Shown in pieces: positions 25,686 to 31,114 of a stretch of 64,000 nt of DNA. Position numbers and translations under genes: made by a program. The stretch spans positions 2,143 to 66,142 of the forward strand of contig JAFUQP010000002.1 of the NCBI GenBank assembly GCA_017472305.1. The letters run 5' to 3'. The stretch comes from Clostridia bacterium. GTDB lineage: Bacteria > Bacillota > Clostridia > Oscillospirales > CAG-272. The stretch's first letter is position 1. Each line of letters begins with the position of its first letter. The notes under the pieces are model-generated. The model saw only the letters and a list, made by a program, of their open reading frames with translations, was not told the DNA's origin and made no database searches.

Positions 25686-25703
25686 AACTAACCGTTTAGT
25701 TAC
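25686..25703 (-). promoter_or_regulatory. Operator-like motif, copy 3, upstream of the giant lipoprotein gene
   Basis: The - strand reads GTAACTAAACGGTTAGTT, 51 nt upstream of ATG 25635. It matches copies at 30253 and 31097. Confidence 0.5.
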
Positions 25704-25881
25704 CTCGGCGGGAAAATCAAACGCAATTAGAGGAGTACGCCGCTTCTTTGGCTCGCGCCGACAAGATTTTCAAGTCATACTAATTGCGTTACTGTGGAAT
25801 AGATTGTTCTATTATTAATCAAAAGAGTTATATATCTATATATATTATAACACATTACTTCCTTATAAACAAGCCAAAAAT

Positions 25882-25911
25882 GTTCGTGATTTTCAATAAA
25901 AAATCACGAAC
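25882..25911. terminator. Hairpin terminator downstream of the catabolic operon
   Basis: GTTCGTGATTTT caataa AAAATCACGAAC, with an A-run before it and a T-rich tract after it. Confidence 0.65.
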
Positions 25912-26011
25912 ACTTTTGTTCAAACAGAATATCTGTGAGGAAATTTGTTTAGCTTTTGAGAAAGTCTTTGCCAAATAATTTGGTAGCAAAAACTCAAAAA
26001 AAATCAAGTTC

Positions 26012-26761
26012 TTACCTCTTTATAAGCTCCCGAAGAGTGGCGGCGTCCGAGAGAAAGCTCTCACGAAGCCCACCCTTTGTGAACTCGATAATCACCGAGC
26101 CCGAAAATCCGTAGCCCGAGAGCGCCGAAACGTAGTCCGACCAATTTTCCCTGCCGCCCGCGTCACAAAGAAGCTCCTGACGGTTTCCGGTATAGTGGAA
26201 CGCGTGAGCGTTCACAAGATAGGGTGATACCAGCCTAAGGTTTTCAAGGTTCTCCTCGCGTGTAGCGCCGAGCACCGTCTGCCAATAGAGCCTCACACTC
26301 GGAAGTCCGACGTCCTCGATAAGCTTCACAGCGTCGCTCGCGGTTGCGGTAATGCTGTGACCGTGGAACTCAAAGCCCACCGTAATACCGTACTCCGCTG
26401 CCATCTTGCCGATTTTCTTGGTTTCAGAAACGAGCGCGGAATATTCCGCGTCGGTCATCTCGCCTCGCTCCTTCTTACCGCCCCACACGCGTATTATGCT
26501 TGCGCCGAGCGCCACAGAGGAGTCAAGGAAGGGCTTGAAGTCTGCTCCCGCGCCGAGATAGAAATAAGAGCCGTAGGAGAGGACCTCGAGTCCTGCCGCG
26601 CGTGTTTTCTCGGCGACCTCCTTCGCAAGGGCAACGTTCCCCTCGGGCACGTGCACGTCGGAGCCCCATTCAATTCCGTCAAGTCCCCCCTCTCTTGCGA
26701 GAGCGATTATTTCATCCGCGGAAAGATTACGGAATGTTACTGAAGTTAATCCTCTTTTCAT
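26012..26761 (-). CDS. Sugar phosphate isomerase/epimerase (xylose-isomerase-like TIM barrel)
   Basis: MKRGLTSVTFRNLSADEIIALAREGGLDGIEWGSDVH...; ATG 26761 follows AAGGAG. Confidence 0.75.
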   Translation of the reverse strand: MKRGLTSVTFRNLSADEIIALAREGGLDGIEWGSDVHVPEGNVALAKEVAEKTRAAGLEVLSYGSYFYLGAGADFKPFLDSSVALGASIIRVWGGKKERGEMTDAEYSALVSETKKIGKMAAEYGITVGFEFHGHSITATASDAVKLIEDVGLPSVRLYWQTVLGATREENLENLRLVSPYLVNAHAFHYTGNRQELLCDAGGRENWSDYVSALSGYGFSGSVIIEFTKGGLRESFLSDAATLRELIKR

Positions 26762-26811
26762 AGCGTCATCTCCTTGTTTTGTTCGATTTTGTAAAGTTGG
26801 ATTTACAAAAA

Positions 26812-27876
26812 TCAGTCCGCGAGCCACCTGTCGAGGTTCGCCTTGACGAACTCGTCGTCATTAAGGTGAGGATAGGACTTATACAGTCTGTCTATTTCTT
26901 CCTTCTGTCCCTCGGACATTTTTTCGTCGGGATTCAAGCACCTTGTGGACTCGAATAGCCCCTGTCTTACAAGCACCTCGTGCAGTCCCGCGATACAGCC
27001 CGCAAAGCCGTTTGCGGTATCAAAGAGCACGGCGTTCGTGTCGGTGACCTCTGCCGCGAGGGTAAGTATCTCACGGGGAAGGCTATCCTTGCCTCTGTAC
27101 TCACGGAGCTTCTCGAAGAGCTCAACCGCGCGCTTTGTCCATACCGACCAGTGACCGAGAAGTCCGCCGATAAAGCCCTTCTCGTAGGTCTTCCCGTCAA
27201 CAGTGAATTTGTAGGTTGTCACAAGGTCGAGAACGATATTGTCGTCGTTACCCGTGTAGAGGGTGATATCGTCGGCTCTTCTCGAGAGTGCCGCCGCGCG
27301 TACCACGTCAAGGCTGTAGTAGCGGTTGAAGGGCGCTGCCTTTATAGCTACGACGTTGTCGATATCGCATACTCTCTCCCAATAATTGTAGCTGAAGGCT
27401 CTGCCGCCGACCGCAGTCTGAAGATAGAAGCCTATAACCGGCATAACCGCGGCAACCGCCCTCGTGCGCTCTACCATATAGTCCTCGGAGTAGGAGTTGA
27501 GTCCGCCGGGGCTCAGCAGCACCGCATCGTAACCGAGGCTCTTTGCAAGCTCGGCTTCCTTTACCGCCTGCTCGGTAGGTCCGCAAACGCCCGAAACCAT
27601 AACGACAGTTTCGCCGTGCGCCGCCTCGAATTTGTCTGCCTCCTCCTTTGCTACGCGGAGCACTTTCTCGAGAAGGTTGTGCTTCGGCTCGCGTATTTCA
27701 AACTGTGTCGTATGCACCGCAACCGCAAGTCCGCCGACTCCCGAGTCGAGGTAGTATCTTACGACGGCTCTCTGGCGCCTTTCGTTGAAGTTTCCGTCCT
27801 TGTCAAGTGCCAGGGGATTTGCCGGGATTACGGTTCCCGCCTTTAGCTTTTTTAGTGCCTTTTCTGTTCTTGTCAT
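26812..27876 (-). CDS. Dihydrodipicolinate synthase/NAL-family (class I aldolase-like) protein
   Basis: Family-like GGLAVAVHTTQFEIR and a candidate Schiff-base Lys in VVAIKAAPF. The substrate is unknown. Confidence 0.55.
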   Translation of the reverse strand: MTRTEKALKKLKAGTVIPANPLALDKDGNFNERRQRAVVRYYLDSGVGGLAVAVHTTQFEIREPKHNLLEKVLRVAKEEADKFEAAHGETVVMVSGVCGPTEQAVKEAELAKSLGYDAVLLSPGGLNSYSEDYMVERTRAVAAVMPVIGFYLQTAVGGRAFSYNYWERVCDIDNVVAIKAAPFNRYYSLDVVRAAALSRRADDITLYTGNDDNIVLDLVTTYKFTVDGKTYEKGFIGGLLGHWSVWTKRAVELFEKLREYRGKDSLPREILTLAAEVTDTNAVLFDTANGFAGCIAGLHEVLVRQGLFESTRCLNPDEKMSEGQKEEIDRLYKSYPHLNDDEFVKANLDRWLAD

Positions 27877-27877
27877 A

Positions 27878-30270: not shown

Positions 30271-30296
30271 TTGAGTTCAAAATTAAGTACCGAAGC

Positions 30297-30920
30297 TTAA
30301 ACGCTAAGGTACTTAATAAGCATATCCGTAATGAATTCTGCGCGGGCGTGAACCTCTTCCTCGCTCGACATATCCTTGCCGAAAATTGCCGACATAGTAT
30401 GAATATTCGAGAAATAAGAGAAGCAGAAGCTCATAAGCGAGAGCACTATCTGATATTCGTCTGCGTCAGAGCGGAATATTCCAAGCTCGACACCCCGACG
30501 AATCTGCCGCCTCATATAATCAAAGGTCGGCGCCTTCAGCTTTACCAGATCGTCCTTCGGAATTGCCGTCGCGCGATTCAGGTTCTCCCACATCAGCATA
30601 CGAACAAAATCCGGGTTCTCAACGAGGAACCTGAACGACACGTGCACGATATTCCGAATAGATGCCACAGGGTCGAGCCCCTCAATCATAAACTGCCTCT
30701 CGCAGTCGGCAAGTCTCTCGTAAACCGAAAGAAGCGCCTTTGTATATAGCCCTTCCTTGCTGCCGAAATGCGCGTAAAGCATTCTCTTGTTTATGTCAGC
30801 CGCCTCGGCTATCTCGTCAACGCGCGCTCCGTAAAAGCCCTTCTCGGAGAACTCCGCTTCTGCCGCGGCAAGAATTCTTTCCCGTGTAAGCACGCTCTTT
30901 TTACAATGCCTTGGCTCCAT
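30297..30920 (-). CDS. TetR/AcrR-family transcriptional regulator
   Basis: The N-terminal HTH RERILAAAEAEFSEKGFYGARVDEIAEAADINKRMLYAHFGSKEGLY. Confidence 0.9.
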   Translation of the reverse strand: MEPRHCKKSVLTRERILAAAEAEFSEKGFYGARVDEIAEAADINKRMLYAHFGSKEGLYTKALLSVYERLADCERQFMIEGLDPVASIRNIVHVSFRFLVENPDFVRMLMWENLNRATAIPKDDLVKLKAPTFDYMRRQIRRGVELGIFRSDADEYQIVLSLMSFCFSYFSNIHTMSAIFGKDMSSEEEVHARAEFITDMLIKYLSV

Positions 30921-30951
30921 AGTCCCTCCGAGAAAAATAAAACTTTAGTTT

Positions 30952-30980
30952 ATTTTACCATATTGGAACCAAAATGTCAA
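30952..30980 (-). promoter_or_regulatory. Promoter of the tetR gene
   Basis: On the - strand: TTGACA, 17 nt, TAAAAT. Confidence 0.55.
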
Positions 30981-31059
30981 GTAAATAGTAAATATGTAAA
31001 TATTTATATATATTTTTTTATTTTCAGCCGTTGCCCTCGAAAAATTTTCCGTCGGGTAC

Positions 31060-31088
31060 TTGACTTTTGCCTGTGACTGAGGTATAAT
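31060..31088 (+). promoter_or_regulatory. Promoter P1 (consensus) for the oxidoreductase gene
   Basis: TTGACT, 17 nt, TATAAT. Confidence 0.6.
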
Positions 31089-31096
31089 AGTGTCAA

Positions 31097-31114
31097 AGTA
31101 ACTAATCGGTTACT
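31097..31114. promoter_or_regulatory. Operator-like motif, copy 2, 9 nt downstream of the P1 -10
   Basis: AGTAACTAATCGGTTACT, with inverted half-sites GTAAC/GTTAC. Confidence 0.55.

Follow-up and report, generated by a model that had tools for sequence, protein, structure and literature searches.

TetR/tetO of transposon Tn10 pairs a TetR-family repressor with palindromic operators in a divergent promoter region, and a small molecule releases the protein. In Bacillus subtilis FadR (YsiA), of the same family, represses a catabolic regulon. Repressors may also act as roadblocks to elongating polymerases: LacI stops lacI read-through at the lac operator, and sites for CcpA and CodY are found within Bacillus transcription units. 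At the terminators of eukaryotic RNA polymerase I, Reb1 or TTF-I is bound downstream of a T-rich release element. Here we consider 64 kb of DNA from a Clostridia bacterium (contig JAFUQP010000002.1, positions 2,143 to 66,142), called the window below, with positions counted from its first letter. A tetR gene, a divergent gene for a Gfo/Idh/MocA oxidoreductase (Gfo), an operon of four enzyme genes and the operon of a giant lipoprotein lie together in the window and share a palindromic motif at three sites, which we name O1, O2 and O3.

The system is a TetR regulon of a well-known type, real, conserved and previously undescribed; we infer from sequence comparison that TetR binds its sites. The three sites are probably operators of this TetR and would define one small regulon, in which O1 would most likely block initiation of transcription and O2 and O3 are likely to act as roadblocks. 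The genes predicted to be co-regulated are the Gfo gene, the operon for an M20 amidohydrolase, an epimerase, a DHDPS-like protein and an isomerase, and the giant-lipoprotein operon. A single regulon of this composition had been proposed in an initial annotation on the basis of the three motif copies, and comparison with other genomes supports the proposal.

Within the window the motif GTAACTANNCGGTTA has three exact matches, at 25689-25703 (minus strand), 30254-30268 (plus strand) and 31098-31112 (plus strand), which are the copies that had been reported, and no fourth appears when up to two mismatches are allowed. One hundred dinucleotide-preserving shuffles of the window gave no exact match at all, in agreement with the earlier view that a chance origin is unlikely. 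With two mismatches a shuffle gives about one match, and three were found in eight of the hundred. The DNA flanking the three copies does not align, so we take the motif to be short and autonomous and not a piece of a longer repeat. Three copies in 64 kb with unalignable flanks do not make a dispersed repeat like the repetitive extragenic palindromes (REP) or miniature inverted-repeat transposable elements (MITE).

The comparison set consisted of 80 loci from other genomes that carry a relative of tetR, the encoded proteins sharing 39-67% identity with that of the window, and amounted to 961 kb. A symmetrised motif matrix was trained on these loci alone, with sites counted at 15 bits or more. 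It corresponds to a 20-bp palindrome, AAGTAACYRWWYRGTTACTT, of 22.8 bits. Applied to the window, the matrix assigns 22.1 to 29.4 bits to the three sites (Table 1); the next-best match elsewhere in the window has 12.5 bits and the top score in 50 shuffles was 17.2. The centres of TAAC and GTTA in the palindrome are 10 bp apart, as expected if one helix-turn-helix dimer sits on one face of the DNA. Positions outside the seed are conserved too, namely AA/TT flanks and a YR..YR centre. Perfect palindromes such as GTAACTAATTAGTTAC occur among the relatives, which makes the TA..CG centre of the window a local variant. The inverted TAAC/GTTA half-sites described in the initial annotation are thus retained, whereas the fixed centre it gave to the motif is specific to this genome.

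The pattern as first described, with two mismatches or fewer, recurs beside tetR in most of the 80 loci, usually 15-40 and 120-200 nt upstream of the tetR start or 33-100 nt past the stop. The matrix finds 110 sites in the 961 kb compared with one to four in block-shuffled controls, and for 83 of them, distributed over 52 loci, a tetR end is no more than 400 nt away. Genes for TetR, Gfo, the epimerase or M20 follow 86 of the 110 sites at a distance of 400 nt or less. The other 24 precede different genes that adjoin tetR. Judged by N-terminal sequence alone, their products appear to include a second M20-type amidohydrolase, a NagB-like protein, a malic enzyme, a serine-dehydratase subunit, a creatininase-like protein and a 2-hydroxyacid dehydrogenase. 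In these genomes, then, the motif is seen to track the regulator and not one fixed target. That it follows tetR although the targets differ is the main argument for TetR as the binding protein. Conservation upstream of orthologous genes, which had been suggested as a check on the motif, is seen beside tetR in dozens of uncultured Clostridia of the gut.

The position of the sites relative to promoters points the same way. For 85 site-directions across the loci a sigma-70-type -10 element ends between 4 nt inside the site and 12 nt before it, and this spacing is, as far as promoters can be predicted, the classical operator geometry. The protein itself has a TetR_N domain followed by a TetR-type C-terminal domain, and a palindrome of about 20 bp adjoins its gene at a promoter or start, as is typical of the family. 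Since the motif follows tetR orthologs and occupies operator positions, the earlier suggestion of a site for a dimeric TetR-type repressor has gained support. The 20-bp palindrome is, on this comparative evidence, very probably the binding site of the neighbouring repressor.

Homologs of the window TetR number 1654 at E<=1e-10, nearly all in uncultured Clostridia. Among them no close characterised homolog or solved structure was found, and a literature search returned nothing relevant on this subfamily. The gene assignments of the initial annotation agree with Pfam and NCBIfam. The order tetR-(M20)-epimerase-DHDPS-like is kept in about 60 of the 80 loci by tblastn, and the Gfo gene is divergent from tetR in approximately the 20 closest. 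Features of the region are listed in Table 1.

Table 1. Genes, promoters, predicted operators and hairpins of the regulon region (window positions).
Feature	Position	Strand	Remarks
Gfo/Idh/MocA oxidoreductase	31254..32210	+	Pfam GFO_IDH_MocA 7e-28; divergent from tetR
Gfo proximal promoter-like sequence	31179..31207	+	11/12, consensus match only; without operator; window and L082 only
tetR distal promoter, TTGACA-17-TATAAT with TG	31124..31152	-	12/12 match; faces Gfo distal promoter across O1
Operator O1 (predicted), AAGTAACTAATCGGTTACTT	31096..31115, core 31098-31113		29.4 bits; Gfo-tetR divergent region
Gfo distal promoter, TTGACT-17-TATAAT	31060..31088	+	11/12 consensus; O1 covers start region
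tetR proximal promoter, TTGACA-17-TGnTAAAAT	30952..30980	-	11/12 match; no intact operator in this genome
tetR, 207 aa, presumed repressor	30297..30920	-	Pfam TetR_N (PF00440) 9.7e-15, TetR_C_29 (PF17938) 1.1e-30, both above cutoffs
tetR 3' hairpin, ATTAAGTACC-N16-GGTACTTAAT + TTTG	30274..30317	-	5' arm formed by last tetR codons; ends 10 nt before O2
Operator O2 (predicted), minus-strand reading AAATAACCGGATAGTTACTA	30252..30271		23.2 bits; between tetR stop and M20 ribosome-binding site
Four-enzyme row	26012..30235	-	Pfam, NCBIfam
M20 amidohydrolase	28952-30235	-	TIGR01891, above cutoff
NAD-epimerase-like protein	27878-28894	-	
DHDPS-like protein	26812-27876	-	
Xylose-isomerase-like TIM-barrel protein	26012-26761	-	
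Lipoprotein-operon promoter	25844..25872	-	-35 TTGTTT (25872-25867), 17 nt, TGnTATAAT (25852-25844), -10 at 25849-25844
Leader inverted repeat, AACGCAATTAG (25790-25780) / CTAATTGCGTT (25730-25720), then TGATTTTC	25712..25790	-	ends 14 nt before O3
Operator O3 (predicted), minus-strand reading AGGTAACTAAACGGTTAGTT	25686..25705		22.1 bits; 5' leader, ends 50 nt before lipoprotein ATG
Giant-lipoprotein operon	17381..25635	-	same gene order called in L082, L086, L088
Giant lipoprotein, 1629 aa	20746-25635	-	no Pfam domain
Small open reading frame, 51 aa	20564-20719	-	
Secreted protein, 542 aa	18876-20504	-	no Pfam domain
458-aa protein	17381-18757	-	no Pfam domain

All three sites had been placed in intergenic or regulatory DNA. 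Of these, O1 alone is at promoters; O2 and O3 lie in transcribed spacer and leader DNA with no recognisable promoter. O1 begins 7 nt after the -10 of the plus strand and 8 nt after that of the minus strand, and the motif copy within it had correctly been placed 8-9 nt past the TATAAT at 31083-31088. Covering the start sites of both promoters, O1 would most likely block initiation from the Gfo distal and the tetR distal promoter. The operator next to the Gfo promoter is conserved in loci L081, L082, L083 and L001-L020, and nearly all close relatives have an equivalent Gfo promoter followed by an operator. The proximal promoter of tetR is conserved in all close relatives. The distal one is found in L082 and L006-L008 also and is absent from most others.

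The arrangement at 31060-31152 is compact, with two near-perfect promoters face-to-face, their -10 boxes 35 bp apart and a single operator between them. The two transcripts would overlap by about 20 nt and may interfere with each other when derepressed. In L006-L008 the promoter-operator-promoter unit of the Gfo-tetR region is tandemly duplicated, which shows that copying of this module is possible. L008 carries a pair of identical operators, 139 bp apart, and a third, weaker one.

O2 lies, as had been noted, between the tetR stop (30297) and the M20 start codon (30235). It is found at the same place in L081-L083, L086, L087, L001-L008, L010 and L011. No consensus promoter is present in the 61-nt spacer between tetR and the M20 gene, so the simplest view is that read-through from tetR transcribes the M20 operon, with O2 as the gate. 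In L012-L020 the enzyme genes stand directly behind tetR, and only in these loci does an intact operator overlap the -10 of the tetR proximal promoter. The window and the loci of its type (L081-L083, L086, L087 and L001-L011) carry the operator after the tetR stop instead, and the proximal promoter has one only where none follows the gene. Of an operator at the proximal promoter this group shows no more than what looks like a decayed remnant, TAAAATAAACTAAAGTTTTATTT, which in the window lies just past the -10 (30925-30957, minus strand); the left half-site survives there and the right one does not. Its presence where L012-L020 keep an intact operator suggests a shift of the operator, away from the tetR promoter and into a position behind tetR. 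The two states, operator on the tetR promoter in the relatives and behind tetR in this lineage, offer a clean natural comparison of autoregulated with constitutive repressor designs.

O3 lies in the leader of the giant-lipoprotein operon, and its distance from the start codon at 25635 had been given correctly (50-51 nt). A TTGACG hexamer overlapping it had also been noted. We do not accept this as the -35 element for the lipoprotein operon: no -10 accompanies it, an 11-nt deletion removes it in the closest relative, L082, where the intergenic DNA around the site has otherwise diverged, and a conserved promoter is present about 130 nt further upstream. That promoter has the form TTAAAAATCACGAA-N9-CTTGAY-N17-TGnTATAAT in five lineages and lies some 100-200 nt upstream of the leader sites across them. 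Its position would put O3 approximately 130-150 nt into the leader.

A site precedes the giant gene in all five lineages examined (the window, L082, L086, L087 and L088), the orthologs in the last three having been reached via the protein database; a metagenome scan with the giant protein gave no matches. L082, whose TetR is 96% identical and whose gene order is the same, keeps all three sites. The giant protein of L086 is 69% identical in an operon of the same order, and its leader carries one site. In L087 the protein is 46% identical, the gene stands on the other side of the cluster, and there are two leader sites of 26.1 and 27.6 bits. In L088 the giant protein is 48% identical and the operon is unlinked, since the contig that carries it is not the one with the tetR cluster L081 in this assembly; its leader has one site of 20.1 bits, 37 nt before the start codon, and this is the sole site of at least 10 bits in 20.8 kb. 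L081 and L083, with no giant gene beside the cluster, have two sites only. The idea that the operon for extracellular proteins shares the motif with the enzyme genes is therefore borne out, in one case without linkage to tetR.

How might a repressor act at O2 and O3? Both lie inside transcribed DNA downstream of promoters free of operators: O2 behind tetR with its strong proximal promoter, and O3 within the leader of an operon that has a conserved promoter of its own. These operator-free conserved promoters upstream, with no consensus promoter at the sites themselves, are the reason to consider a block to elongation. Bound TetR would stop the elongating polymerase just upstream of the ribosome-binding site, and a small-molecule inducer, probably a substrate or intermediate of the pathway, would remove TetR and relieve the roadblock. 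Granted that TetR binds, an elongation roadblock at O2 and O3 is on balance what the promoter map leads us to expect, with modest confidence.

Ahead of both sites there is a hairpin followed by a T-run. The hairpin at the 3' end of tetR has a folding energy of -16.5 kcal/mol (z = -4.5 against shuffles); 12 loci conserve its 10-bp stem and the spacing from there to the operator, and an automated scan picked it up in every locus with the window-type arrangement. In L082 both arms of the leader repeat before O3 are preserved and its loop is not, and the repeat is part of the minimum-energy fold but with a z of only -0.76. Analogous elements of unrelated sequence occur in L086, L087 (twice) and L088. 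Inspection of 12 non-promoter sites found a hairpin with T-run at every one. The automated scan, over sites of at least 15 bits, found them at 22 non-promoter site-directions, and in the 19 hits with a folding energy of -10 or lower the hairpin ends 10-14 nt before the site; control positions had such an element in 30 of 400 cases (7.5%). The leaders match no Rfam family, the only signal being sub-threshold microRNA-model noise on a terminator hairpin at 25875-25918.

Such a hairpin and T-run, 10-15 nt ahead of O2 and O3, may help to release the blocked polymerase. A stronger version is that O2 and O3 are composite switches in which a leaky intrinsic terminator is followed, 10-15 bp on, by a TetR operator, forming a ligand-controlled attenuator. 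TetR when bound would stall polymerase on the release element so that termination becomes efficient, and the same element would become a read-through site once ligand had freed the protein. From the sequence features at hand we hold this to be doubtful. Were it true, a DNA-binding protein would replace the RNA-binding factor as operator of an attenuator, and tetR would stay on constitutively while the genes behind it are gated. Our literature search found no natural terminator-plus-operator module of this kind.

Some observations weigh against the interpretation presented here, or against parts of it. No site was found within 400 nt of tetR in 28 of the 80 loci, and the leader site of L086, despite a perfect 16-bp core, does not score above 12.3 bits. 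The Gfo proximal promoter-like sequence has no operator, hence control of Gfo by TetR may be partial. Many spacers between tetR and the M20 gene permit a weak reading TTGnnn-18-TACTTT with the operator in the promoter spacer, the start of which would fall on the M20 ribosome-binding site. With respect to terminator coupling, of six giant-leader hairpins, three are no more stable than shuffled sequence (z = -0.1 to -0.8) and only that of L086 (z = -3.0) is clearly better. The tetR-M20 hairpins share one ancestry, which limits what the association of hairpin and operator can tell. If the repressor halted polymerase at a distance of about 13-14 nt, the enzyme would come to rest at the stem base, a few nt before release normally occurs, and coupling is therefore geometrically uncertain. 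The weak leader folds, the shared ancestry and the stall geometry make the terminator-coupled roadblock a hypothesis and not a finding.

Could the sites be TetR operators with O2 and O3 acting at promoters that are not recognised because they are weak, activator-dependent or read by an alternative sigma factor? The hairpins would then be merely the tetR terminator and an unrelated leader structure. The alternative reading of the spacers noted above would suit this, as would leader site b of L087, which reads TTGCCA-18-TACTTT, and the lack of significant stability in the hairpins of several giant leaders. The putative -10 is, however, off consensus, reading TACTAA in the window; transcripts would start on or after the ribosome-binding site in several loci; and the pattern fails in the leaders of the window, L086 and L088. 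The promoters that do adjoin a site in the relatives are clear consensus promoters with the operator after the -10. We consider unrecognised promoters a possible but unlikely explanation, and prefer the roadblock.

It is improbable that some other transcription factor, with its gene elsewhere, binds the palindrome and that the adjacency of the motif to tetR is incidental. An AraC/PocR regulator is encoded 3.4 kb beyond the lipoprotein operon and would be a candidate, but AraC-type proteins usually bind direct repeats and no other regulator gene is common to the loci. The motif, by contrast, co-occurs with tetR orthologs down to approximately 40% identity, even on the tetR promoter itself, and stays with tetR when the target genes change; the 10-bp spacing of its half-sites fits a TetR dimer. 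Very improbable is a role of the motif as a stem-loop in transcripts. O2 and O3 are transcribed, and the palindrome can form a stem of 5-7 bp, which RNAalifold draws. The conserved centre, YRWWYR, is nonetheless symmetric on DNA, as would not be required of a loop, most sites are at -10 or start positions of promoters, O1 serves both strands and no Rfam family matches. Chance or dispersed-repeat copies, for which only the relaxed two-mismatch matches in shuffles could speak, are refuted by the exact-match shuffles, by the independent matrix that separates the three sites from the rest by the enrichment of sites across the 80 loci and by the conservation of sites at orthologous positions in many genomes, and the likelihood of such an origin is negligible.

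What would a TetR of this kind respond to? The enzyme set (amidohydrolase, Gfo dehydrogenase, DHDPS-like aldolase or lyase, epimerase- or reductase-like protein and TIM-barrel isomerase) suggests, from family membership, the breakdown of an N-acylated sugar or sugar acid. Matches of these enzymes to characterised families in NCBIfam are far below family cutoffs or generic; sequence searches of the PDB gave no relative of the epimerase-like protein and only remote matches for the DHDPS-like protein. On the extracellular side the 458-aa protein is paralogous to an N-terminal region of the giant lipoprotein, with about 28% identity by tblastn. It is confidently predicted as an alpha/alpha toroid (pLDDT 93) with a loose likeness to GH15, GH76, GH105 and terpene cyclases at TM-scores of 0.3-0.4. 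Among homologs of the giant protein there are some with laminin-G, 3-keto-disaccharide-hydrolase or polysaccharide-deacetylase domains. From these sequence relationships and the fold model we infer that extracellular glycan processing may feed the intracellular pathway.

The giant protein belongs to a family of more than 300 domain-less proteins of Clostridia, mostly of about 1100-2700 residues, and has Gly/Ser/Asp/Asn-rich linker repeats at both ends. The 51-aa open reading frame behind it is matched by small genes in the corresponding position, of 51 aa in L082, 53 aa in L086 and 50 aa in L088, and ends in GGGWTGS, resembling a GSGWTGSY near the C-terminus of the giant protein. Behind the isomerase gene a 13-bp perfect inverted repeat, TGTTCGTGATTTT-N6-AAAATCACGAACA (25881-25912, minus strand), looks like its terminator. 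The 3' arm, AAAATCACGAA, is conserved just upstream of the lipoprotein -35 in five lineages (window, L082, L086, L087 and L088). It is kept in L087 also, where the upstream gene is divergent, so the arm may have a further role as an UP element or in binding a second regulator.

The AraC/PocR regulator gene mentioned above is divergent from an EamA transporter gene and a gene for a 620-aa protein without Pfam domain (together 13332-17175 in the window). The trio also follows the lipoprotein operon in L086 and may be functionally connected with it. Two further matches to the motif matrix were considered as sites and rejected, since their scores are within the range of shuffles. The one at 15266-15285 (12.5 bits), between the EamA gene and that of the 620-aa protein, lacks conservation, the L086 locus having the same neighbouring genes and no counterpart of 10 bits or more; the other is at 18839-18858 (9.3 bits). 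On the other side of the cluster, 1.8 kb beyond Gfo, is a full-length bacterial serpin gene (34046-35296, minus strand; Pfam Serpin 2.4e-85), which is unrelated to the motif.

The value of the predicted operator is that it defines a binding site for a TetR subfamily that has more than 1600 members among uncultured gut Clostridia and lacks a characterised one. The predicted co-regulation connects an enzyme cassette that is widespread but unstudied with the giant surface proteins, a large family without known domains, and provides a first handle for finding the substrate and the inducer. The points of interest are this link between cassette and surface protein, the switch of the operator from the tetR promoter to behind tetR, and the possible terminator-coupled roadblock. 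If the coupling is true it would be an unusual way of making a terminator conditional, and inducible expression in Clostridia would gain a compact part.

In common with Tn10 TetR/tetO the system has a small repressor with, to judge from its sequence, an N-terminal helix-turn-helix and a C-terminal domain of ligand-binding type, and a palindromic operator in a divergent region predicted to control the regulator and its neighbour. Release by a small molecule would be expected by analogy. The differences are that the C-terminal domain is of subfamily TetR_C_29, with no characterised close homolog; that one operator lies between face-to-face promoters, where Tn10 has two operators between back-to-back promoters; that the targets are catabolic enzymes and surface proteins, as opposed to an efflux pump; and that two further operators are far from any promoter. 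With B. subtilis FadR the system shares one palindromic box repeated ahead of several operons of one pathway. The box sequences are unrelated, the match to the FadR model in NCBIfam is 27 bits against a cutoff of 200, and the pathway is not fatty-acid degradation.

The roadblocks of LacI, CcpA and CodY offer the closer parallel for O2 and O3, as an operator in transcribed DNA would, by analogy, stop polymerases coming from an unregulated promoter. The likeness to LacI includes a repressor gene directly upstream of the regulated genes and co-directional with them. Unlike those cases, there is no separate regulated promoter visible for the M20 operon, whose control would rest mainly on the roadblock; the operator is, moreover, paired with a hairpin and T-run at a fixed distance, and the regulator is of the TetR family. 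The terminators bound by Reb1 or TTF-I resemble the predicted arrangement in that transcripts would end at a T-rich tract with a DNA-bound protein 10-20 bp downstream of it. They belong to another polymerase and another domain of life, and the comparison is one of analogy and not of homology. The protein here, unlike Reb1 or TTF-I, would be removable by a ligand, and for that reason the terminator would be conditional.

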